64,000 nucleotides of DNA from a virus: positions 1-64,000 of the IMG/VR virus record IMGVR_UViG_3300037189_010507, one strand, 5' to 3'. Below the pieces are notes generated by a model that was given only the letters and a program-made list of their open reading frames with translations, was not told where the DNA came from and ran no database searches. Below, piece by piece: positions 2,328-21,138 of this stretch. Position numbers and translations under genes: made by a program. Within the stretch, counting starts at the first letter, position 1; every line of letters starts with the position of its first letter.

Positions 2328-2935
2328 TGACTACAATTGTTGCAATTCAGGGTGATGATTATTGTGTAGTAGGCACAGATTCTAGAGTTTCATCTTTTGA
2401 TGAAAGTGGTCTTGCATATCAAATAACAACACTTGGTACTGGTTCGTGTAAAATTTCTCAAAAGGGAAGATATTTACTAGGAGCTGCTGGAGATGTTAGA
2501 GCAATTAACATTCTTCATCATGCCTTTACTCCACCAGTACCACCATTTAAAACTGGCGGAGAGCAACTTGATGAGTTTATAACCACAAAGTTTATACCAC
2601 AACTTCAAGTTTGCTTTGAGAATACTGGATACGCTATGCCAGATCAAGCAGATGATAAAACACATATGTCAGAACATTCATCTACAATTCTAGTAGCAGT
2701 TAATGGAGTTGTGTATATCATTGATGGTGACTATTCTTGGACCTCAGATAGAACTGGCATCTATGCAATTGGAACTGGTTCTTCATATGCTCTTGGAGCA
2801 ATTTATGCCATCACTGGCGGAAAACAGATATCAATCCAGAAAGCAAAGCTTGCCATTAATAAAGCGCTTTCAATAACATCAAAGTTTGATCCATATACAG
2901 GAGCGCCTTTTCAAACTTTTGCACAGGAGCAATAA
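2327..2935 (+). CDS. Ntn-hydrolase, HslV/proteasome beta-like peptidase
   Basis: Starts MTTIVAIQ (N-terminal Thr nucleophile), GTDSR, AIGTGSSYALGA, DPYTG. Confidence 0.85.
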   Translation: MTTIVAIQGDDYCVVGTDSRVSSFDESGLAYQITTLGTGSCKISQKGRYLLGAAGDVRAINILHHAFTPPVPPFKTGGEQLDEFITTKFIPQLQVCFENTGYAMPDQADDKTHMSEHSSTILVAVNGVVYIIDGDYSWTSDRTGIYAIGTGSSYALGAIYAITGGKQISIQKAKLAINKALSITSKFDPYTGAPFQTFAQEQ

Positions 2936-3108
2936 TGCCAACTTATCAATATAAATGCCTTAGTGGTCATGAGGTAGAAGAAACAAGAAAAATTAATGAA
3001 GATCAAAAAATGATCTGTTGTCCAATATGCGGAGATGCTTTAAAACCTGTATACTCATCACCGGGTGTCCAATTAAAAGGCGGAGGCTTCTATCGGAATA
3101 GCCGATAG
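2935..3108 (+). CDS. FmdB-family zinc-ribbon protein (not in ORF track)
   Basis: MPTYQYKCLSGH...CPICG...PGVQLKGGGFYRNSR translated by hand. Confidence 0.85.
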   Translation: MPTYQYKCLSGHEVEETRKINEDQKMICCPICGDALKPVYSSPGVQLKGGGFYRNSR

Positions 3109-3232: not shown

Positions 3233-3520
3233 ATGTGTAATGAAAATTATGCTGTAATACGAGACATGCAGCAAAGTGTACAGGATTGTGAGAGACAAAT
3301 CACTATATGGATGAAAACTGCTGAGCAAACGACAATCCAATCTTTCTATGCAAATGCAGAAAGAGATGCTTATAAAAAGATTATAAGAGAGATTATTGAG
3401 GCTATTGAAAACGAAGGGCCAGTACCTCACTATCACCATCATGTTATGAGAAAGCATCGCAGTGAATGGCCGACTTTATGGAAGGCTATTGATAAGGCAA
3501 TTGAGAAAATAAATGATTGA
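3233..3520 (+). CDS. Hypothetical protein
   Basis: ORF with purine-rich RBS, overlaps next start. Confidence 0.55.
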   Translation: MCNENYAVIRDMQQSVQDCERQITIWMKTAEQTTIQSFYANAERDAYKKIIREIIEAIENEGPVPHYHHHVMRKHRSEWPTLWKAIDKAIEKIND

Positions 3521-4076
3521 TTATATTGAAGACCTAATTCCAAAAGAAAAGCAGAATCTTATTGAAGACTATGTAAAGGATTCGAGTTTCCCATATAGAT
3601 TTCATAAAACTCATATCTATGAGCAAGGAGCAACTGGCAATTCTCCACTGCAGTTGACACATCATTTAATGATGTACGGAGAAGAGCGTGTTTCTCCACA
3701 CTTTCCGATAATAACATCCGTTTATGATAGCTTGATCAAACTTTATGGGAATATCACACTATTTCGTGCAAAGGTAAACTGCACCTTCCCTGACCCTACG
3801 AGGACTGGATACGAGCCTCAGGAGCCTCATACTGATTTAAAATACGATGATGGTCGTAAGATTCCACATCTCGTATGTTTATATTACATAAATGATTCTG
3901 ACGGACCAACATACTTCTATGATAAAGATAAAATTTCTTTGGCAATCCCCCCAAAAAAAGGTTCTGCCGTAGTTTTTGATGGTAGTATCATTCATGCGGG
4001 TAGTAACCCCATTCATAACCCTTTTAGATTTGCTTTAAATATCAATTTTAGAAAAGGTTTAAATCAAATTTTATAG
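3513..4076 (+). CDS. 2OG-Fe(II) oxygenase superfamily protein
   Basis: PHTD...LYYINDSDGPT...VFDGSIIHAG...RFALNINF (HxD...H...R). Confidence 0.85.
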   Translation: MIDYIEDLIPKEKQNLIEDYVKDSSFPYRFHKTHIYEQGATGNSPLQLTHHLMMYGEERVSPHFPIITSVYDSLIKLYGNITLFRAKVNCTFPDPTRTGYEPQEPHTDLKYDDGRKIPHLVCLYYINDSDGPTYFYDKDKISLAIPPKKGSAVVFDGSIIHAGSNPIHNPFRFALNINFRKGLNQIL

Positions 4077-5601: not shown

Positions 5602-5894
5602 AAATTTAATACAAATTTTTGACGGTAAACTCCCGATCTCAATTGTGATGAAACTCAACCGAACCCGTTTTTTCTAAAATTTTAGTATGCAGTTGTGGAA
5701 GGCTATGCATGCATACGATCGTGGATAGTCTTTGTCTGTTTGCGGGGTCAATGCCATTGGCATACCCCTTGGGGTACCCCTGCCCAATGAGATCCTGCAT
5801 ATTATGAAAGTTCGCGCCCTGCCCGCCCTGTAAATAAAGGGGTCGGGTGCATAAATATACGGCGGGGTGCATAAAAAAAATGTGTGCGGGGTAG

Positions 5895-5923
5895 TTGTGT
5901 TGGGTCGCCTATTGGGATAATAT
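5895..5923 (+). promoter_or_regulatory. sigmaA/70-like promoter
   Basis: TTGTGT-N17-TAATAT. Confidence 0.65.
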
Positions 5924-5966
5924 TTACTTATCGGGCGGGGCGGTCTCGCCCGATGGAAAGGTAAAT

Positions 5967-6272
5967 ATGCAGGTTGTAGATATGACCCAGAAAACGGCAG
6001 TAGAGTACATTCTCTTCACTGTCGGGCACGAGTCGGGTAATGGCCGTGACGTTGTTCACTTTATGAACAGAAAAGATGTGGAAAATTATATCCATACCGT
6101 ACTTGTCCCATTGCACCTAGAGGATGACGGCTTCAGCCCCGATGACATTCAGCAGATTTACACAACTACCACAGTCTATGGCGACTGCGATGTGTCTCTG
6201 GAAATTGACGGTCAAGCGTGGAGTCAGTGTTTCAAGGTAACTCGCACCGAGCGTTTCATTCGCTACGAGTAG
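5967..6272 (+). CDS. Hypothetical protein (cassette 1)
   Basis: GAAAGG RBS before ATG 5967; followed by terminator. Confidence 0.7.
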   Translation: MQVVDMTQKTAVEYILFTVGHESGNGRDVVHFMNRKDVENYIHTVLVPLHLEDDGFSPDDIQQIYTTTTVYGDCDVSLEIDGQAWSQCFKVTRTERFIRYE

Positions 6273-6307
6273 CCCCCTGCCCCGCTCGCAATGCGGGGTA
6301 TCTCACG

Positions 6308-6336
6308 AGACCCCGCTCGCAATGCGAGCGGGGTCT
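6308..6336 (+). terminator. Intrinsic terminator hairpin
   Basis: AGACCCCGCTCGC-AAT-GCGAGCGGGGTCT. Confidence 0.65.
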
Positions 6337-6400
6337 TCCAATTCCCGCCCCATTCCCGCCTGCCCCCGCAAACGGCTGCATCGATCGAGCCGGGGCGGAG

Positions 6401-6448
6401 CTTCACGCCCTGCTATCTAACTGTATGCATTTATGGGAATTGAGTATA
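6401..6448 (+). repeat. Degenerate array element (right arm + downstream box)
   Basis: TTCACGCCCTG ends 6412; TTGAGTATA starts 6440 (+28). Confidence 0.45.
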
Positions 6449-6591
6449 CATCAAATTATGGGAAACGCTGGCCTTTCAAATTATGGTAGCCTATTTTTTC
6501 GAGGGTGTAGGGAACAAAGGTACGACTTTCTTACACCCTTTCGTCTGACGGTGTATGTCCGAGAAATTTCAACACAAATTCTGAACAATAC

Positions 6592-6620
6592 TTGTATTTC
6601 CCGATAGTTTCCTGTAATCT
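6592..6620 (+). promoter_or_regulatory. sigmaA-like promoter, leaderless
   Basis: TTGTAT-N17-TAATCT-N6-ATG. Confidence 0.75.
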
Positions 6621-6626
6621 AACCTT

Positions 6627-7136
6627 ATGACAAAGCGTCAAGCCAAAGCAGGTAATGGTCGCGTGGTGACCAATACCCCCAATAGTGCGAAGGGTCAAAG
6701 CACAGTTACCAAGTCCGCTGTATTGCGTCACATTGCGACAGCACGAGCAGTGAACATTAGCCGTGGAGTAAAGGCACACTATGACAACGAAGGCACACAG
6801 CGTCTGGCTGAAGCCATTGCTAAGTCATTCCGTATGCCAACACTCACGGAAGCGAAACTTACCGAGAAAGGCAAGGACATGCCCAAGAATGCACAAGATG
6901 GCGCAATGCGTAGAGAGTTTGCAATAGCACACAAGGCTATCGCCATAGACATCTCTACTATTCTCGGAGAGAGAAAGGGTGGAAAGATTATCCACAACCG
7001 CCCTGAGAACAACCTACACCTGAAACTCGCAGGTATTGCTGTAGCAATGGGGCTACCTGCTAAGACTTTCTACCCCGTTCGTTCTCAGGCCGTTCGTGAC
7101 GGTGAAGTACCTACGGTGTACATAGTACGCCGATAG
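6627..7136 (+). CDS. Basic hypothetical protein, paralog of 9157..9639
   Basis: Shares YDNEG, MPT, RREFA, ILGE, IIHxRPEN, AMGLPA with 9157..9639. Confidence 0.85.
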   Translation: MTKRQAKAGNGRVVTNTPNSAKGQSTVTKSAVLRHIATARAVNISRGVKAHYDNEGTQRLAEAIAKSFRMPTLTEAKLTEKGKDMPKNAQDGAMRREFAIAHKAIAIDISTILGERKGGKIIHNRPENNLHLKLAGIAVAMGLPAKTFYPVRSQAVRDGEVPTVYIVRR

Positions 7137-7159
7137 AGCGTTCGCAACCCCCGACATTG

Positions 7160-7187
7160 GAGAGCCTACCCGAAAGGGTAGGCTCTC
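7160..7187 (+). terminator. Intrinsic terminator hairpin
   Basis: GAGAGCCTACCC-GAAA-GGGTAGGCTCTC. Confidence 0.7.
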
Positions 7188-7207
7188 TCTATGTGTTATG
7201 GGCTTGG

Positions 7208-7246
7208 GTGGTGTGACAATGATCCCCAGATCATTGTCACACCACT
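7208..7246. repeat. Array palindrome P1
   Basis: GTGGTGTGACAATGATC-CCCA-GATCATTGTCACACCAC; TTTAGTGCAAA at 7274. Confidence 0.8.
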
Positions 7247-7307
7247 TCGTATGAGCGTGTCTCTATGAATAAATTTAGTGCAAATTCCAAAAATGATTAG
7301 AGAATGG

Positions 7308-7336
7308 TTGTGTTTGCTACCTTTCCGTGTTACATT
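7308..7336 (+). promoter_or_regulatory. sigmaA-like promoter, leaderless
   Basis: TTGTGT-N17-TACATT-N6-ATG. Confidence 0.7.
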
Positions 7337-7342
7337 CAGGGT

Positions 7343-7567
7343 ATGAGAAATCATTCATACATCACCCCAACACTTGATCACAACCTATTCCTAATTTCAT
7401 TCGCCCGCCCGCTTCGCATTCAGCGTAAGTATGTTGAATGCATTGTGCGTAAGCGTTTCAATGACACAATGTTGCGACACTACTCAGGTACTGTCATCAT
7501 TTTCAATGTGTCTCAAATTGACAAGCGCAATTTCCGTGTTCTCTGTCTCGTTACGCCAAAAGCGTAG
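7343..7567 (+). CDS. Hypothetical protein (cassette 3)
   Basis: Leaderless ATG 6 nt after -10; MRNHSYITP... Confidence 0.6.
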   Translation: MRNHSYITPTLDHNLFLISFARPLRIQRKYVECIVRKRFNDTMLRHYSGTVIIFNVSQIDKRNFRVLCLVTPKA

Positions 7568-7583
7568 CGAGATAGAGAGCTGG

Positions 7584-7622
7584 GCAGGTGTAACGCCTTG
7601 GCATAGCCAGCGTTACACCTGC
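7584..7622. repeat. Array palindrome P2
   Basis: GCAGGTGTAACGC...GCGTTACACCTGC; TTTAGTGCAAA at 7650. Confidence 0.85.
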
Positions 7623-7683
7623 GTCTATGTAGTCACTCACTCAGGCAAATTTAGTGCAAATTCTGGAAATGTTTCTAGAAAGA

Positions 7684-7711
7684 TTGCTTTCCCAATTTTT
7701 TCAGTTATACT
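7684..7711 (+). promoter_or_regulatory. sigmaA-like promoter, leaderless
   Basis: TTGCTT-N16-TATACT-N7-ATG. Confidence 0.7.
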
Positions 7712-7718
7712 CTTACCT

Positions 7719-8003
7719 ATGAAGAAATACAACTCATTCCAAATGACACTGCTACCAACTCGTGAAAGCGAAGCAGGTCGTGACATTTACACCGTCTATG
7801 TAAGCATTCCCAACTATGAATTGGGTGATGATGTGCATTTTCTTGGACTTACCGCTCGTCAGGCGTTCTCTAGCGCAATGGAATTTATAAACGAAATTGT
7901 CGGGCGTATGTGCGCACATTGTAGCAACGTTACTCCTGCAAGTGATGAGACCTACCGCAACGCTGGAATTTGCCACTCTTGCTACGAAAAAATCTCGCTC
8001 TAA
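7719..8003 (+). CDS. Hypothetical protein with C-terminal CxxC...CxxC zinc finger (cassette 4)
   Basis: MKKYNSF...CAHC...CHSC; start reassigned from 7431. Confidence 0.7.
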   Translation: MKKYNSFQMTLLPTRESEAGRDIYTVYVSIPNYELGDDVHFLGLTARQAFSSAMEFINEIVGRMCAHCSNVTPASDETYRNAGICHSCYEKISL

Positions 8004-8024
8004 GAAAAAGGACAGCACACAGGG

Positions 8025-8050
8025 GAGCGGGTCGCAAGACCCGCTCTTTT
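8025..8050 (+). terminator. Intrinsic terminator (identical to 8488-8513)
   Basis: GAGCGGGTC-GCAA-GACCCGCTC-TTTT. Confidence 0.8.
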
Positions 8051-8060
8051 CCTTTTCCTG

Positions 8061-8099
8061 GCAGGTGTAAGAGTTCGGCATAGCCGTTCTTACACCTGC
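8061..8099. repeat. Array palindrome P3
   Basis: GCAGGTGTAAGA...TCTTACACCTGC; TTTAGTGCAAA at 8127. Confidence 0.85.
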
Positions 8100-8188
8100 T
8101 TGTCTAAACACAACATAGATTGAGCTTTTAGTGCAAAAAATTAGTTGTAGTGTACAAATACTTTTTTCAAGTTTTTTTGGAATTGGGG

Positions 8189-8216
8189 TTGTGTTTGCCT
8201 TTGCATTTGTTATACT
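8189..8216 (+). promoter_or_regulatory. sigmaA-like promoter
   Basis: TTGTGT-N16-TATACT. Confidence 0.7.
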
Positions 8217-8254
8217 GTGTGTATGGCAATAGCGCCAGAGTGAAAGGAACTCCA

Positions 8255-8461
8255 ATGCGAGTCTTTGATAGCCCCGACAACAAACTGTCCGACATTCTTG
8301 ACCAAATGCAGGCAGAAGCCTGTTCTTGGGATGGCGTATTCTCAGCACAGTACATTGCAGGAGTGATTTACGCCTGCGAGTGGTTGCGTAACAGCGCAAG
8401 CAACCTGAGCGACAACGGCGTTCTCTTGAGCGAAGCAATCCTAGTTCCCCCAAAAAAATAG
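8255..8461 (+). CDS. Hypothetical protein (cassette 5)
   Basis: AAAGGA RBS before ATG 8255; MRVFDSPDNK... Confidence 0.7.
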   Translation: MRVFDSPDNKLSDILDQMQAEACSWDGVFSAQYIAGVIYACEWLRNSASNLSDNGVLLSEAILVPPKK

Positions 8462-8485
8462 AAAGGAGAGTTTTTCTTCTGCGGG

Positions 8486-8513
8486 AAGAGCGGGTCGCAA
8501 GACCCGCTCTTTT
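8486..8513 (+). terminator. Intrinsic terminator
   Basis: AAGAGCGGGTC-GCAA-GACCCGCTCTT-TT. Confidence 0.8.
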
Positions 8514-8522
8514 GCTTTTCTG

Positions 8523-8562
8523 GCGGGTGTAAATCTTATTGGCTCCGCCGATTTACACCCGC
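8523..8562. repeat. Array palindrome P4
   Basis: GCGGGTGTAAATC...GATTTACACCCGC; TTGAGTATG at 8590. Confidence 0.85.
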
Positions 8563-8601
8563 AGGTACGAAATAACAACACATAAAGATTTGAGTATGTG
8601 C

Positions 8602-8630
8602 TTGTAATTGTGTTTGGTAACTGATAAGGT
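8602..8630 (+). promoter_or_regulatory. sigmaA-like promoter, leaderless
   Basis: TTGTAA-N17-TAAGGT-N6-GTG. Confidence 0.65.
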
Positions 8631-8636
8631 GAAGCC

Positions 8637-8849
8637 GTGACAAACACAAACAAGCCGACTGAAATTACAGAGGCACAATCAGCACCCCGTTTCTACCAAG
8701 AGTTAGTCAAGGACTTGACTGAGACCCTTGCCCTCGGAGACTTTCAGGAACTGTTCCTGGACTTCTTGGCTTACTACGAGGACAACCTTGAGGTTCTCAA
8801 GATGGCTCGTCTGTGCTACGCAGACCTCATAACCGAAATCTACGGCTAA
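8637..8849 (+). CDS. Acidic helical hypothetical protein (cassette 6)
   Basis: 70 aa ORF between promoter and terminator. Confidence 0.7.
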   Translation: MTNTNKPTEITEAQSAPRFYQELVKDLTETLALGDFQELFLDFLAYYEDNLEVLKMARLCYADLITEIYG

Positions 8850-8870
8850 GACCCCCCAGCCCCCCCAGCG

Positions 8871-8897
8871 GACCCCCTCTCGGAGCGAGAGGGGGTC
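8871..8897 (+). terminator. Intrinsic terminator hairpin
   Basis: GACCCCCTCTC...GAGAGGGGGTC. Confidence 0.65.
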
Positions 8898-8906
8898 TTG
8901 CTATGT

Positions 8907-8946
8907 GCGGGTGTAGACGCTCGGCTCCGCTCGCTCCCACACCCGT
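8907..8946. repeat. Array palindrome P5 (weaker stem)
   Basis: GCGGGTGT...ACACCCGT; TAGAGTATA at 8973. Confidence 0.7.
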
Positions 8947-9012
8947 GTAATAAAAGTAAATATACCTTTATGTAGAGTATACAAATTCCAATTGATATTG
9001 ACTTTCCTGCAG

Positions 9013-9052
9013 GCGGGTGTGGTGCAAAGCAAACGCAGTGATCCACACCCGC
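9013..9052. repeat. Array palindrome P6
   Basis: GCGGGTGTGG...CCACACCCGC; TTTAGTAGA at 9080. Confidence 0.85.
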
Positions 9053-9121
9053 AAGCTTGATACGATCGTTCCGAGCGTTTTTAGTAGAAAAATGTAATCA
9101 AAAAAAAAATTGTGTTAGTGG

Positions 9122-9150
9122 TTGTATTTACCAATGGAGTGCCTTAGTAT
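9122..9150 (+). promoter_or_regulatory. sigmaA-like promoter, leaderless
   Basis: TTGTAT-N17-TAGTAT-N6-ATG. Confidence 0.75.
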
Positions 9151-9156
9151 GTCCTT

Positions 9157-9639
9157 ATGGCATCAACACCTAAGACTACTGCTAAGCAGGGTCGCAATAC
9201 CAAGTCCACCCCGACCGCAAAGGTCACCTACACGGCAGTAATGGCGCACATCTCTAGTGCTCGTAGTTTCCGTCTAGCACAAGGCGCAAAGGCTAACTAC
9301 GACAATGAAGGCGCACAACTACTTGCAAAGGCTGTCGTGAGAGCGTCTGCTATGCCAACAATGGCGAGCGAAGGTATCACTACCGACAAGGCTCGCCCAA
9401 TGGCTCAAGCTCGCCGTGAGTTTGCTCGCACTCGTAAGGCTCATCTGCTCAATGTTTCCGACATTCTCGGTGAAGGTAAGAATGGCGAGATTATCCACGA
9501 CCGCCCCGAAAACACCATTCGCATTCGCCTTGCGTCTATCGCTAAGGCTATGGGACTTCCAGCAGACACCTACTACGCCGTGAGAGCGAATGAATACGCC
9601 GTAGGCGACATTCCGCAAGTGTTCATCGTTCGCAAATAG
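9157..9639 (+). CDS. Basic hypothetical protein, paralog of 6627..7136
   Basis: End-to-end alignable by eye with 6627..7136. Confidence 0.85.
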   Translation: MASTPKTTAKQGRNTKSTPTAKVTYTAVMAHISSARSFRLAQGAKANYDNEGAQLLAKAVVRASAMPTMASEGITTDKARPMAQARREFARTRKAHLLNVSDILGEGKNGEIIHDRPENTIRIRLASIAKAMGLPADTYYAVRANEYAVGDIPQVFIVRK

Positions 9640-9661
9640 CGAACGCCTAACCGCCCCCCAA

Positions 9662-9689
9662 TGAAGCCCGCCCTAAGGGGCGGGCTTCA
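9662..9689 (+). terminator. Intrinsic terminator hairpin
   Basis: TGAAGCCCGCCC-TAAG-GGGCGGGCTTCA. Confidence 0.7.
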
Positions 9690-9699
9690 CCTTGTACGG

Positions 9700-9738
9700 G
9701 CGGGCGTAAGATCTGCGCAAGCTTGATCTTACGCCCGC
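9700..9738. repeat. Array palindrome P7
   Basis: GCGGGCGTAAGATC...GATCTTACGCCCGC; TTTAGTACA at 9766. Confidence 0.85.
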
Positions 9739-9827
9739 GTGTAATATTACATTGAGACCTTTATGTTTAGTACATAATTTCAAATTATGATTACCTAGAA
9801 AAAATAGAAACATTTTTGGAATTGGGG

Positions 9828-9856
9828 TTGTGTTTCTGTATTCGTTTAGTTAGTAT
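9828..9856 (+). promoter_or_regulatory. sigmaA-like promoter
   Basis: TTGTGT-N17-TAGTAT. Confidence 0.7.
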
Positions 9857-9894
9857 GTACATACAAGGCGCAAGCCCCTAACGAAAGAAAGAAA

Positions 9895-10185
9895 ATGAAA
9901 GTTCCAGAATTTGCAACTCATTCAGTTATCCGTTTAGAAATGCCATACGAAATGTATCGTTGGGTTCTGTATTGCTTGGCTACCTACGACAACCCCAGAG
10001 ACCACGACGCAGTTGAGTTGCATAAAAATGCTTTTGAGTTTGCAGAATCTTTGGGTGCAGAATCTCCTCACCATTTCATTTCAGAAAATCTTCCGTTTAT
10101 GCAATGCTACTACACCCAATTAGTAAAACTATCGCAGACTGCGACAGAGCAGGCAAGAATCGTTTTAGAAGCGCTTGAGGGTTAG
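9895..10185 (+). CDS. Hypothetical protein (cassette 8)
   Basis: 96 aa ORF between promoter and terminator. Confidence 0.75.
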   Translation: MKVPEFATHSVIRLEMPYEMYRWVLYCLATYDNPRDHDAVELHKNAFEFAESLGAESPHHFISENLPFMQCYYTQLVKLSQTATEQARIVLEALEG

Positions 10186-10190
10186 TCCGT

Positions 10191-10214
10191 TGGGGGCAGG
10201 TAACACTGCCCCCA
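10191..10214 (+). terminator. Terminator-like hairpin
   Basis: TGGGGGCAG...CTGCCCCCA. Confidence 0.6.
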
Positions 10215-10221
10215 TAAGCGG

Positions 10222-10260
10222 GCAGGTGTAAGACTCTTGCTTTGCGAGTCTTACACCTGC
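10222..10260. repeat. Array palindrome P8
   Basis: GCAGGTGTAAGACTC...GAGTCTTACACCTGC; TTGAGTGTG at 10288. Confidence 0.85.
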
Positions 10261-10453
10261 GTCTGTAATGTTACACGATAATAAAAATTGAGTGTGTATA
10301 TGTAATATTACTTAGACTATCTTTATGGATGTAATATTACAATCTTGAACTTTATGGAGCTGTGTAATATAAGAGATCCTGTGTAATATAAGCTGTAATT
10401 TTAGAAAAACCCGTGTAATACTAGAAAAAATCTGAAAAAATGTGGAAAAGTGC

Positions 10454-10482
10454 TTGTGTTCTCTGGGTATCTCCTGTATCTT
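10454..10482 (+). promoter_or_regulatory. sigmaA-like promoter
   Basis: TTGTGT-N17-TATCTT. Confidence 0.65.
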
Positions 10483-10549
10483 TATAAATACCAAAGGGAA
10501 ACGCCCCGATGGTGCGGAAAGTATCCGTTACACACAGTTAGGAAAAACA

Positions 10550-10840
10550 ATGGAGTTTGAGTTCATTGATGAAAATGAAATTCAGGCAGTGCGCCGTGGA
10601 CGTAAGTCCACCGCCCCCCCTGAATTGGTAGAAGCCCTTGCGAAAATGCCAAAGGGTCAGGCAGTCCGTATCAAGGGAATGAAGTTAGACCCAAGTTCCC
10701 CCGACTACAAGAATGACAAGGCTTCCGTATCGGCAAGCATTCGCAGTGCTGGCAAGTTGGCAGGGGTGAAGGTTGCTATCTCGTGGTCACCTGATGGTGT
10801 TCCACAGGTAAAGACCAAGGTGGTCAGGGCTAAAAAGTAG
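10550..10840 (+). CDS. FEFID/RGRK-family basic protein A (putative DNA-binding)
   Basis: MEFEFIDENEIQAVRRGRKS...ISWSPDGVPQV; AGGA RBS; start reassigned from 10442. Confidence 0.85.
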   Translation: MEFEFIDENEIQAVRRGRKSTAPPELVEALAKMPKGQAVRIKGMKLDPSSPDYKNDKASVSASIRSAGKLAGVKVAISWSPDGVPQVKTKVVRAKK

Positions 10841-10904
10841 TACCCCCCTACTGCTTTCGCAGTCCTACCTAGCCCCCGTTACCCCGCCCGCCCTAATCAG
10901 GCGG

Positions 10905-10944
10905 GCGGGCGTAATGAAGTCGTTCCTTTGTTCATTACGCCCGC
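10905..10944. repeat. Array palindrome P9
   Basis: GCGGGCGTAATGAA...TTCATTACGCCCGC; TTTAGTATG at 10972. Confidence 0.85.
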
Positions 10945-11066
10945 TTTTCTAATCGTAACATTACACACAAATTTAGTATGAAATTGTAATATTACACACC
11001 TTGTAATATTACATAGATGTCCGGAAAATGCAGTAAATAATTTTTTGCTGTAATATTAGGAAATGG

Positions 11067-11095
11067 TTGTTTTGGCCTTGGCTATCTGGTAGTCT
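11067..11095 (+). promoter_or_regulatory. sigmaA-like promoter
   Basis: TTGTTT-N17-TAGTCT. Confidence 0.65.
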
Positions 11096-11120
11096 TTCAT
11101 TTATGAAAGGAGGTAGCCAT

Positions 11121-11246
11121 ATGAAGCTTGCAGTACTTTACCCGAACGGGCACAAGTCTCCAATTTCGGAGGAGCAAGTCGCAAAGTACGGGCTGCGAGT
11201 AGGAATGCTCACACCGTTCACGCGCTTGCCAATCGTGGAACTCTAG
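11121..11246 (+). CDS. 41-aa small protein (cassette 10; not in ORF track)
   Basis: AAAGGAGGT RBS; MKLAVLYPNGHKSPISEEQVAKYGLRVGMLTPFTRLPIVEL; own promoter and terminator. Confidence 0.8.
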   Translation: MKLAVLYPNGHKSPISEEQVAKYGLRVGMLTPFTRLPIVEL

Positions 11247-11264
11247 AGTTACACGGTGAGAACG

Positions 11265-11288
11265 GGGGAGGGTCTAATGACCCTCCCC
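11265..11288 (+). terminator. Intrinsic terminator hairpin
   Basis: GGGGAGGGTC-TAAT-GACCCTCCCC. Confidence 0.65.
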
Positions 11289-11322
11289 TATTCTTACAGA
11301 GCACTGTGTAACATTACAGAGG

Positions 11323-11361
11323 GCGGGCGTAAGGTTCACACTCTTGTAACCTTACGCCCGC
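11323..11361. repeat. Array palindrome P10
   Basis: GCGGGCGTAAGGTT...AACCTTACGCCCGC; TTTAGTATG at 11389. Confidence 0.85.
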
Positions 11362-11427
11362 ATGTAAGATTACACCATGCGAGTAGATTTTAGTATGAAA
11401 TTGCAATATTACACGGTAATGGAGATC

Positions 11428-11530
11428 CGATCGTGTAATATAAGCGATCGTGTAATATAAGACCGTGTAATAATAAATCGTGTAACTTTATGTCAAGCTG
11501 TGTAACATAAGAGATCTCGTGTAACATAAG
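11428..11530 (+). repeat. Tandem GTGTAA(T/C)ATAAG-type direct repeats
   Basis: CGATCGTGTAATATAAG twice in tandem, then four related copies. Confidence 0.75.
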
Positions 11531-11577
11531 AAACTGAGATACTTGCACACTACAAGTATTATTTTTTCTGTTTGACG

Positions 11578-11606
11578 TTGTGTTTGCCGATTAGTTCGGT
11601 TAGAGT
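11578..11606 (+). promoter_or_regulatory. sigmaA-like promoter with long leader
   Basis: TTGTGT-N17-TAGAGT, about 185 nt before ATG 11793. Confidence 0.65.
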
Positions 11607-11792
11607 TCTACTTGTCAGATTGACACTCGGTTACGGGGTCGGTTAGGCAGGGATTTTTCCCTAGCATTTTCCGCCCGTTTCGGTTCTGACCTAGCAAGAG
11701 TGAAGGGTCGTAGTAGGCGCACCATAATTCCCTACAAGTCACCATTGGCAACGGTGATTATTCACAAAAAACTTTCAAGAAAGGCTTTCATA

Positions 11793-12095
11793 ATGGATTT
11801 TGAATTTATTGATGAAGGCGACATTGAAGGCGTCAAGCGTGGTCGCAAGTCGCAAGTTCCGCAAGAGCTCATTGACTTGTTCAAGGCTATCCCAGCAGGC
11901 AAGGCAGTCCGACTGTCTGAGTTTGCAGGAGACCCAACAGACCCCGATTACAAGACACACAAGCAGAACGCAGGTTCTACTATCCGTCAGGCTAGTAAGC
12001 AGGCAGGCATTGAAATTCGCATTTCATGGTCTCCTGCAGGCGTTCCGCAGGTGTCTCGTAAAGCGCCTAAGAAGTCTGCCAAGTCTGCCAAGTAA
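11793..12095 (+). CDS. FEFID/RGRK-family basic protein B
   Basis: MDFEFIDEGDIEGVKRGRKS...ISWSPAGVPQV; GAAAGG RBS. Confidence 0.85.
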   Translation: MDFEFIDEGDIEGVKRGRKSQVPQELIDLFKAIPAGKAVRLSEFAGDPTDPDYKTHKQNAGSTIRQASKQAGIEIRISWSPAGVPQVSRKAPKKSAKSAK

Positions 12096-12158
12096 TTAGG
12101 CAGGCGTAGCGCACATACCGCCAAGAGTGCCGAAGCACTGCAACGGTATGGGAAATGT

Positions 12159-12200
12159 AACCCCGACACACTCGCCAAGTGTGTCGGGGTTCTTTTTTTT
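12159..12200 (+). terminator. Intrinsic terminator
   Basis: AACCCCGACACAC...GTGTGTCGGGGTT + T tract. Confidence 0.85.
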
Positions 12201-12210
12201 CTGCTTACGG

Positions 12211-12250
12211 GCGGGTGTGGATCACTGCGTTTGCTACGCACCACACCCGT
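12211..12250. repeat. Array palindrome P11 (inverted near-copy of P6)
   Basis: 37/40 identical to the reverse complement of 9013-9052; TATAATACA at 12278. Confidence 0.85.
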
Positions 12251-12374
12251 GTAATGTTACACATCTTTATCATAAATTATAATACATATTTGTAATCACA
12301 TTATAGATAATATATTTTATTACCTTTATGTAATCTTTATGGGGGTATGTAATATTACATTAGATCGCGCAAAT

Positions 12375-12412
12375 AAAAAAAAGAGAAAGGGTAGCATTTC
12401 TGCTACCCTTTC
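12375..12412 (-). terminator. Intrinsic terminator for 12446..12760
   Basis: GAAAGGGTAGCA-TTTC-TGCTACCCTTTC with adjacent A tract. Confidence 0.8.
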
Positions 12413-12445
12413 CCGGACTCTTAGTGAACTATTTGGTTTCTTTAT

Positions 12446-12760
12446 TTAGGAAACTTTTTTCGCGTATGGAACATTCTTTATGTCCCAAGTAATGCGAACC
12501 TTTTTCCAACCCGCAATTTTTGCCTGATTGCGGATAATTGCTGAGTTTGCAGCCTTAGCAGTTTTCTTATCTTCTGCCGTAACAAAATCGTTACCCAATG
12601 CCAAGTTTCCTACCTTGACAATTTGACCAACTTTTGCCTTAGCAAAAAACTCAACCATCTCAGGAATAACGACAGCCTTACGCCCACGTTTTACTGAGTC
12701 AATTTCTGATTCGTCAATGAACTCAAATGAGAATCCATTATTTTCGTCTTTTGGAGCCAT
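12446..12760 (-). CDS. FEFID/RGRK-family basic protein C
   Basis: FEFIDESEIDSVKRGRKA...IRNQAKIAG...ITWDIKNVPY. Confidence 0.85.
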   Translation of the reverse strand: MAPKDENNGFSFEFIDESEIDSVKRGRKAVVIPEMVEFFAKAKVGQIVKVGNLALGNDFVTAEDKKTAKAANSAIIRNQAKIAGWKKVRITWDIKNVPYAKKVS

Positions 12761-12970
12761 TTTTATCTCTTTTCTTTTAGTTATTTGGCTATTTATTTGA
12801 CACGTTCACCGAGTCAATTATCACGATAGCGGGTGGAATGGCAAACAACTACCGATAAATAAAAAAATATAAAAAAGATCCATTTCTGAATAGAATACGC
12901 GATCTAAAGATCAGCTCAATACGCGATCTAATCCAAGATGTAATATTACAGGGGTTGTAATATTACACAG

Positions 12971-13008
12971 ATGGGTGTAAGAGCGTCTATTGCCGAACTT
13001 ACACCCAT
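12971..13008. repeat. Array palindrome P12
   Basis: ATGGGTGTAAG...CTTACACCCAT; TGTAGTGTG at 13037. Confidence 0.75.
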
Positions 13009-13376
13009 TTGTAATATTACATAGTGCTAAAGAAATTGTAGTGTGTAATATTACAGGGGCTATCCTTTTCTAAATCTAATCCTAAATTCTAATCCAAATC
13101 CAAATCCTAACATCCCGGCACCTTTATGGCGGGGCAATAGGGTTACTAATACTACGTCTGATACCTGATCTATTCTTAGAAGGTATTAACTACCTATAGA
13201 TAGGTATTACAGCATTGTAATTTGCACATTTATAGCCTCAAAACGCACACTAAAATTCTCACAAATAAAAACCGCCTAATTTATGAGCATTTTACTGTCT
13301 TTTTGATTGATTTTATAAACAATTAGTTTGTTTTTTTATATAATTAGTAACATTTTTTCACCTTTATGGGGGGTAC

Positions 13377-20039: not shown

Positions 20040-20125
20040 TTGTTTCCTTTATTTGTTTTGGGGATATAAAAAGAGACTGGCTACCGTTAGTAGTATCCAA
20101 TGCCTAACGATAACCAGTCTCTTAG

Positions 20126-20198
20126 CGCTTTCAGTAAGATTCGAACTTACAACCTACTGATTAGAAGTCAGTTGCTCTATCCATTGAGCTATGAAAGC
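20126..20198 (-). tRNA. trnR: tRNA-Arg (anticodon UCU)
   Basis: GCTTTCA/TGAAAGC acceptor; ACTGA-CTTCTAA-TCAGT anticodon arm; GTTCGAATC T-loop; no encoded CCA. Confidence 0.9.
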
Positions 20199-20866: not shown

Positions 20867-21064
20867 ATTTCGCTCCTTTAGTTGTTGGGTTTACGATTCT
20901 GTTATACACAGATAACGCATTAGCATAAGCTAAGGTTGCGAAACGAGGTCATAGCATATTTATCTACAATTCAATGCTCACTCGCTTCACTTGCATTTAT
21001 TCATAGGCATCACCTTTCCTTAAAAAAACAGATAAATACAATTATATCACTTAATGCAATATAG

Positions 21065-21138
21065 TGCCGAATATAGGAATTGAACCTATTCAAAAAACTT
21101 ATAAGGTTTTCTCCGTCAAACCGTTCGGACCATTCGGC
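21065..21138 (-). tRNA. trnI: tRNA-Ile (anticodon UAU), slightly non-canonical
   Basis: GCCGAAT/ATTCGGC acceptor, discriminator A; AAAAC-CTTATAA-GTTTT; ATAGG-TTCAATT-CCTAT; G at position 8. Confidence 0.75.

Follow-up and report, generated by a model that had tools for sequence, protein, structure and literature searches.

In T4-type myoviruses, promoter-early stem-loops (PeSLs), each made up of a stem-loop and a sigma70-type promoter, lie between the small ORFans of a hyperplastic early region and are tied to indels and replacements of whole open reading frames (ORFs) between close relatives, which have been ascribed to inter-repeat recombination; the stem-loop of a PeSL is a terminator, short and variable between phage pairs (PMC2839356, PMC4122927). 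In cluster K mycobacteriophages, the SAS box is a 13-bp ribosome-binding region located 3-8 bp before start codons, and the arms of the ESAS are imperfect (PMC3203893). Here we describe a bipartite element in the first 64 kb (64,000 nucleotides, the whole stretch analysed and hereafter the window) of the IMG/VR virus record IMGVR_UViG_3300037189_010507, a linear record of 90,571 bp that is ~87% complete. The element consists of a 38-40 bp palindrome followed at a fixed distance by a -10-like box, and twelve copies of this composite lie in a cassette-like array of small genes at positions 5895-13045.

The composite resembles a PeSL in that a stem-loop and a promoter-like motif recur between the small ORFs of a plastic early region, and in that ORF-level indels and replacements between relatives end at the composite motif. 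It differs in that a separate canonical terminator is followed here by a 38-40 bp perfect palindrome without a T tract, and in that neither the outer sequence nor the length nor the 30-nt phasing varies across a deeply diverged clade; moreover, this phage, which encodes a DnaE polymerase and a tape measure protein, is not T4-like. The SAS/ESAS elements share the format of one-orientation bipartite repeats in the non-structural genes of actinophage-like siphoviruses, with ~17-bp inverted repeats, a variable spacer, a length of 38-47 bp and an asymmetric box (PMC3203893). Unlike the SAS box, the box described here is -10-like and lies 47-450 nt upstream of the start codons; the arms are perfect, and there is no sequence relationship between the two kinds of repeat. 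Promoters activated from an upstream dyad, such as phi29 PA3 with protein p4, the P2 Ogr promoters with TGT-N12-ACA at ~-55 and the CRP class I promoters with a site at -61.5, offer a further likeness in their wide inverted half-sites at a fixed distance, their weak or absent -35 element and their use of a small phage protein as a switch, but those sites are not known to be perfect through the centre or to evolve by compensatory change. The sequence, the clade-wide invariant phase and the perfect compensating palindrome are each absent from all three systems. The host-takeover module of the Bacillus phage SPO1, in which nearly each of many small early genes has a strong promoter and a terminator, is similar as a block of small early genes with their own promoters; SPO1 itself is unrelated, and we know of no phased palindrome in it.

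The initial annotation had reported twelve palindromes and, in ten of them, a box exactly 28 nt after the right arm; all twelve were found again at the same positions, and the box coordinates and the spacing proved exact. All are oriented as the + strand genes. Each palindrome has a core of 32-34 nt, GGYGTAA-N18-20-TTACRCC, which is extended outward by 2-3 further pairs (GCR/YGC). The T[TG]nA[GA]T box starts 30 nt past the core, equal to 28 nt past the arm, in 10 of the 12 copies, and at 29 nt and 31 nt from the core in the copies at 8907 and 12971, respectively. Given that the box pattern occurs at 1.2% of the positions of the region, ten of twelve at one fixed offset would be expected by chance with P ~4e-18, which places the spacing far above chance. 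A search for the hairpin pattern gave 13 matches, compared to 0.1 in shuffles of the region, and all 13 lie within 6.5-13.0 kb of the 90.6-kb record. When folded as single-stranded DNA, 11 of the 12 palindromes had z values of -4 to -8.8, the copy at 8907 being degenerate (z -1.0).

The order of parts in a unit, as had been proposed, is a promoter, one small gene, usually a terminator, and then the palindrome. Most genes have an intrinsic terminator, and those at the unit ends stand 8-19 nt ahead of the next palindrome, whereas no T tract follows the palindrome on either strand. Since the palindrome lies downstream of a terminator and is followed by the box and by a gene with its own promoter, it is neither the terminator nor the main promoter of a unit, in agreement with the earlier view that it does not itself terminate transcription. 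An Rfam search at permissive E-values returned only sub-threshold chance matches and thus no family, and a literature search for the motif strings retrieved nothing relevant.

To define the distribution of the element, IMG/VR was scanned with a pattern of the palindrome only (GCGGGYGTAA-N17-22-TTACRCCCGC), which returned 23 loci. About 20 of these carry 2-12 palindromes each under relaxed matching, at a spacing of 350-2000 bp. Across the 118 hairpins of the 23 phage loci, every array keeps one palindrome orientation, and the box stands at offset 29-31 in about nine in ten. Five relatives with complete or nearly complete genomes each have a single palindrome cluster, always inside an island of 42-50% GC in a genome of 31-36% GC; the corresponding GC-rich island of the window (5800-12300) has 44-49% GC against 31-36% across the genome. 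A chimeric assembly of this island was considered and dropped, because the island and the family B paralogues described below recur in all relatives. Relatives keep the order of the distal genes (an acidic protein family, F1, and then two family B genes), and the proximal part varies. The same palindrome pattern gave 31 scattered matches in 185,579 bacterial and archaeal species genomes, none of them (0/31) accompanied by the box or the small palindromes, a clean negative control that confines the composite to this phage clade.

The symmetry of the palindrome was analysed in 88 non-redundant copies, whose stems comprise 982 pairs. Of these, 975 are of the Watson-Crick type, two are G·T and two A·C, and each of the four pair types is found at the inner stem positions. 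As an RNA hairpin on one strand should tolerate G·U, the lack of any G·U excess places the constraint on symmetry in the DNA, or in both strands, and not in a one-strand RNA. The total length is fixed at 32-34 nt, with a stem of 5-15 bp inward and a loop of 3-25 nt, and ~12 of the 88 copies pair only in the conserved 5-7 bp part, with loops of up to 25 nt. Such a fixed length around a free centre is what the recognition of two outer half-sites by a protein on duplex DNA would impose. In comparison with a 91%-identical relative (L017), 7 of 12 orthologous palindromes are identical and all six stem substitutions are compensated, including those at the GTAA positions (GTAA to GTAG, GTGG to GTAG), which argues that the pairing itself is maintained. 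The pairing could be kept either by selection for a folded form, as the initial annotation had proposed, or by arm-to-arm templated correction.

The box has the appearance of a -10 element. The box-aligned consensus reads aaaTTTAGTAT-g-tatTTGTAAt, and the box consensus, TTTAGTAT, contains TAGTAT, which is also the -10 of the proximal promoters at 9122 and 9828. The box of the copy at 12211 forms GTTACA-N16-TATAAT, a 10/12 match to the consensus promoter, and in relatives an operator ATTACA stands 17 nt ahead of TAGTAT. With TAGTAT taken as the -10, the centre of the dyad would lie at ~-61 from the predicted start, a value of geometry only; a position of about -61 is the classical one of an upstream activator or anchor site. 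Other readings of the motif were considered and dropped, namely a Bacteroidetes -7/-33 promoter, NtcA or CRP sites (wrong spacing), a sigma54 promoter (TTGC at -12 absent) and CRISPR-repeat mimics (wrong spacing).

A 12-bp small palindrome, TGTAAnnTTACA, lies 3-5 nt past the core in the distal copies of the window and in most relatives; a second one lies over the predicted start site, and a mirror copy is sometimes present 3-5 nt ahead of the core. Measured from the core end, the offsets are +4 and +44 to +50, with a mirror site at -15 in some copies, and the sites overlap the -35 position and the predicted start of the putative box promoter. In the window, the zone of these small palindromes extends over 9741-13055 (no strand assigned), where they flank the boxes and are stacked in front of the three family B genes. 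The 90.6-kb record contains 16 GTAAnnTTAC sites, all of them at 5-15 kb and 15 at 10-15 kb, and relatives have dozens of small palindromes per array. Their sequence is phage-specific (TAATATTA, TAAGTTTA or TAACGTTA), and the inner arms of many large palindromes copy the variant of their phage, while the outer GGYG/CRCC of the large palindrome is invariant across phages. We read the small palindromes as putative operators of a phage-encoded protein, and the outer palindrome with the box as a putative, more conserved machine-binding element.

Gain, loss and relocation of whole units were observed between relatives. The unit at 10996-11389, comprising a 41-aa gene, its terminator, the palindrome at 11323 and the box, is absent from L017, and the junction lies inside the common TTTAGTATGAAATTGYAATATTACA. 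In a second relative (G001), the same unit is 95.6% identical, the flanks being only ~70% identical; there it precedes the first family B gene, whereas in the window it lies between two family B genes, and both of its boundaries in G001 are at a small operator. Indels of the size of a unit, with their ends in GTAAnnTTAC repeats, were seen in other relatives. Furthermore, the palindrome at 12211 is an inverted near-copy of that at 9013, loop included, suggesting that copies also exchange sequence through their arms. The process is best described as modular shuffling by homologous or short-homology recombination at the regulatory repeats, and not as site-specific capture.

Family B, proteins of 90-100 aa with the pattern FEFID…RGRK…W.P.G.PQV, is the candidate for the operator binder. 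Nearly all of the arrays examined have two tandem family B genes at their distal end, with the operators densest ahead of these genes. A third paralogue (FEFID…RGRK), AT-rich and on the - strand, lies at 12446-12760 of the window, and a third AT-rich copy on the opposite strand was also found in the three relatives in which the flank was read (L028, L029 and L030). The family forms at least 484 sequence clusters in metagenomes. Its AlphaFold model is confident (pLDDT 81) and shows an extended basic N-terminal arm with the RGRK motif, followed by an alpha-beta-alpha-beta-beta fold. Matches from a PDB profile search, Foldseek, VIA-align and the ESM Atlas were all weak and unspecific, and there was none in Pfam. 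A DNA-binding fold was not called for family B, as the structural matches are too weak (RepE at Z 5.0); its candidacy as the binder is by association.

Taken together, we favour, with about an even chance of being right, a reading in which the palindrome is a regulator-binding, cruciform-capable dyad that precedes a secondary promoter by ~61 bp, and in which homologous recombination shuffles the modules in a PeSL-like manner. From these sequences we infer that the box acts as a promoter and that a protein, possibly of family B in the case of the small operators, binds the repeats. The array would be an early, host-takeover-type module of a virulent siphovirus-like phage, in which each small gene would be an autonomous unit with a TTGTGT-N17-TAnnnT promoter and, in most cases, a terminator. 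Between units, the composite would join a GC-clamped symmetrical dyad able to extrude as a hairpin or cruciform, a -10 box and the TGTAAnnTTACA operators. A dimeric or multimeric protein, for which the small RGRK proteins of the arrays are candidates, would recognise the outer GGYGT(A/G)(A/G) arms at their fixed spacing, and the bound dyad would then control a second, -35-poor promoter ahead of each unit or would insulate the units from one another. A phage protein on the small operators, for which the RGRK protein of family B is the prime candidate, may switch the array off. The recurrence of box and operator repeats in every unit would allow homologous recombination to delete, insert and transpose units within a phage and between co-infecting relatives.

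Several points weigh against this reading. The box is a promoter by sequence prediction, the first six copies (7208-9013) are mostly without a recognisable -35, and the -10 of the copies at 7208, 7584 and 8061 reads TAGTGC, without the last T. A good proximal promoter already serves every gene, so that the need for a second is not obvious. The complementarity of the inner arms would be left unexplained by a protein that contacts only the outer arms, as it calls for real hairpin formation or templated arm-to-arm correction. The half-sites are ~26 bp apart (2.5 helical turns) and would consequently face opposite sides of B-DNA, an awkward arrangement for a simple dimer. Finally, the best structural matches of family B, pseudouridylate synthase 7 (Z 5.4) and RepE (Z 5.0), are not significant and point to no DNA-binding family.

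Other explanations were weighed against the same data. The palindrome, either protein-bound or as a cruciform, may act as an insulator or roadblock that stops read-through and buffers the supercoiling which strong transcription of tandem units would drive between them, the box being the next promoter; its location 8-19 nt past the terminator, its strictly DNA-level symmetry and the dense packing of promoter-terminator units would suit this role, but the clade-wide exact 30-nt phasing to the box is left unexplained, and there is no + strand gene that composites 11 and 12 could insulate, making this an unlikely account, though one with some merit. Compensatory pairing even at the GTAA positions (GTAA/GTAG/GTGG), where structure must matter beyond sequence, together with the confinement of the array to a single early block, would rather favour a structure-specific DNA signal, in which a hairpin on entering or replicating DNA is read by a virion-delivered or host protein as an N4-like promoter, a priming site or an injection pause. 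The N4 hairpin promoter has a 5-7 bp stem, a 3-nt loop and a start a few nucleotides from the base, whereas stems of 8-19 bp, loops of 3-25 nt and a box 28-30 nt away are found here. Moreover, ~12 of the 88 copies have a stem of only 5-7 bp with loops of up to 25 nt, a pure hairpin signal would not require a fixed total length, and the only domains of the tape measure protein are of tail and lysin-like types. The large ORFs of this phage encode DnaE, the tape measure and tail proteins, and no T7/N4-type RNA polymerase domain (PF00940) was matched in the five genomes searched (the record and its four complete relatives), a search in which the control genomes were silent as well. We consider such a signal to be rather improbable. 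The same low probability is given to a variant in which the palindrome, extruded as a cruciform or hairpin when the DNA is supercoiled or enters the cell, is an obligatory structure-specific promoter or loading element read by the host RNA polymerase or by a host or virion factor, following the N4-like principle with a different machine; selection on structure of this kind would explain the perfect, compensatorily evolving arms.

A role at the RNA level, as an extra terminator, an RNase III site or the source of a short antisense RNA driven from the box, would be consistent with stable hairpins in intergenic, possibly transcribed DNA. It is nevertheless very unlikely, in view of 2 G·U in 982 stem pairs with A·C equally rare, the absence of a T tract on both strands, the canonical terminators just upstream and the lack of any Rfam match; for the antisense RNAs that the initial annotation had listed among its options, the box is -10-like on the + strand only and reads ACTAAA, not a -10-like sequence, on the - strand. 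That annotation had also suggested integron-like recombination sites served by a recombinase encoded outside the window. Hairpins of DNA between single-gene cassettes are indeed the likeness to integrons, and the gain, loss and relocation of whole units, as well as the one palindrome that is an inverted copy of another, agree with cassette behaviour. However, the junctions lie in the box/operator or GTAAnnTTAC repeats and not in the palindrome, and neither a tyrosine (PF00589) nor a serine (PF00239) recombinase was found in the record and the four complete relatives, although the controls were matched in 14/14 and 12/14 reference genomes, respectively. An attC site is an imperfect palindrome with extrahelical bases and RYYYAAC/GTTRRRY core sites; here the arms are GGYGTAA/TTACRCC, 975 of 982 pairs are Watson-Crick, extrahelical bases are absent, and no IntI-type recombinase was found in these genomes. 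In addition, the cassettes of integrons are promoterless and are gained or lost at junctions inside the site, whereas here every unit is provided with a promoter of its own and usually with a terminator, and the F1-B-B order is conserved. Integron-like capture is thus largely refuted, and we regard it as the least probable of the explanations considered, with the cassette-like exchange standing and the site type and recombinase not.

The individual composites, all on the + strand, are as follows. Composite 1 (7208-7281) has a palindrome at 7208-7245 with 17-bp arms (z -7.5) and the box TTTAGTGC at 7274, and the same box is found at 7650 in composite 2 (7584-7657; palindrome 7584-7622) and at 8127 in composite 3 (8061-8134; palindrome 8061-8099). 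Composite 4 (8523-8597) combines a palindrome at 8523-8562 with the box TTGAGTAT at 8590. The degenerate palindrome of composite 5 (8907-8980; palindrome 8907-8946) is followed at offset 29 by the box TAGAGTAT at 8973, and no gene separates it from composite 6 (9013-9087), with a palindrome at 9013-9052 and the box TTTAGTAG at 9080. Composites 7 and 8 both include an operator: the former (9700-9773) has a palindrome at 9700-9738, the operator TGTAATATTACA and the box TTTAGTAC at 9766, and the latter (10222-10295) a palindrome at 10222-10260 and the box TTGAGTGT at 10288. The consensus box is carried by composite 9 (10905-10979; palindrome 10905-10944, box at 10972) and by composite 10 (11323-11396; palindrome 11323-11361, box at 11389), which is mobile together with gene 10. 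In composite 11 (12211-12285), the palindrome at 12211-12250 is followed by GTTACA-N16-TATAAT, the box being a consensus -10. Composite 12 (12971-13044; palindrome 12971-13008) has the box TGTAGTGT at 13037 at offset 31 and keeps the + orientation despite its position upstream of a - strand gene. A 13th palindrome core at 6504-6537 (+ strand) is degenerate and without a box.

The array comprises eleven small + strand genes, located at 5967-6272, 6627-7136 (family A), 7343-7567, 7719-8003, 8255-8461, 8637-8849, 9157-9639 (family A), 9895-10185, 10550-10840 (family B1), 11121-11246 and 11793-12095 (family B2), whose products matched no Pfam or PHROG family. The two family A paralogues are of 160-169 aa and both appear leaderless. 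Every + strand gene between 5967 and 12095 (n = 11) has its own predicted proximal promoter. Ten of these, of the form TTGTGT/TTGTAT/TTGCTT/TTGTTT-N16/17-TAnnnT, are on the + strand at 5895-5923, 6592-6620, 7308-7336, 7684-7711, 8189-8216, 9122-9150, 9828-9856, 10454-10482, 11067-11095 and 11578-11606. The eleventh, weaker and read by eye, is TTGTAA-N17-TAAGGT at ~8606-8634 on the same strand and would serve the GTG start at 8637. At 6627, 7343, 7719 and 9157, the -10 (TAnnnT) stands 6-7 nt before the ATG without a Shine-Dalgarno sequence, suggesting that these four mRNAs are probably leaderless (promoter-start stretches 6592-6629, 7308-7345, 7684-7721 and 9122-9159). The intrinsic terminators at the unit ends are located on the + strand at 7159-7188, 8021-8050, 8484-8513, 8871-8897, 9662-9689, 11256-11297 and 12159-12191, and a further terminator hairpin, called on the - strand at 12383-12414, lies after the third family B gene.

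The second family B gene has a conserved ~230-nt leader from promoter to start (…TACTTGTCAGATTGACACTCGGTTA…; window 11560-11792), ~67% identical to the matching stretch of L029 and without a match in Rfam, which may be structured or autoregulatory. In L028, L030 and L032, a conserved, very acidic protein of 80-87 aa (…DDDIDDADERDITDELPEDIL…) that looks like a DNA mimic is encoded just ahead of the family B pair; it is absent from the window. Runs of TCTAATCC/AAATCC-type short repeats and then CCTTTATG end the array, at 13060-13135 in the window and likewise in L028, L030, L031 and L032. The heptamer CTTTATG is enriched at 10-15 kb (9 of 25 forward copies).

The phage is large (~100 kb), tailed, siphovirus-like and uncultured, and its four complete relatives have genomes of 105-109 kb. 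The + strand genes at 1-12.1 kb are convergent with the - strand genes, which run from the far end. An upstream + strand block encodes a proteasome-subunit-like protein (2276-2935; N-terminal match only), a 2OG-Fe(II) oxygenase (3513-4076) and a zinc-ribbon protein (2935-3108). Elsewhere in the record are genes for a DnaE-type polymerase, a DnaB-like helicase, the large terminase (TerL), a C5 methyltransferase, glycosyltransferases and tail fibre proteins. The tape measure protein (3764 aa; 66467-77761 of the record, - strand; L033:2467-13761), which lies outside the window, has a minor-tail domain and, below the Pfam cut-off (E 4e-4), a weak match to an Rpf-like transglycosylase. A domain search found no sigma70 region 2 in the record or the four complete relatives, and a DNA similarity search of the array against cultured phages gave no match. 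In one complete relative (G003), the annotated 'direct terminal repeat' is an exact 123-bp overlap of its ends (L028 1-123 and L066 11878-12000), suggesting a circular assembly and not a mapped physical end.

TerL and DnaE are each ~40% identical to their counterparts in Streptomyces BK-cluster phages. Leaderless mRNAs are common in Actinobacteria, and the leaderless genes would fit this affinity. Together with the weak Rpf-like match, these sequence features are hints of an actinobacterial host, not proof. The phage encodes a tRNA-Arg(TCT) at 20125-20198 and a tRNA-Ile(TAT) at 21064-21138, and the early genes may be tuned to a higher-GC host, with later genes dependent on the phage tRNAs.

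The composite joins three features that are not known together, namely an invariant phase to a promoter element, a compensatorily kept symmetry of the DNA and a modular exchange of genes at the adjoining repeats. It marks a large clade of uncultured phages and offers a sequence signature for finding early anti-host gene sets, all of them ORFans. The data also illustrate how such genes pass from phage to phage with no dedicated recombinase. Should the dyad serve as an activator site or a structure-dependent promoter element, the composite would be a compact, portable switch and would provide a clear test case for cruciforms in phage gene control.

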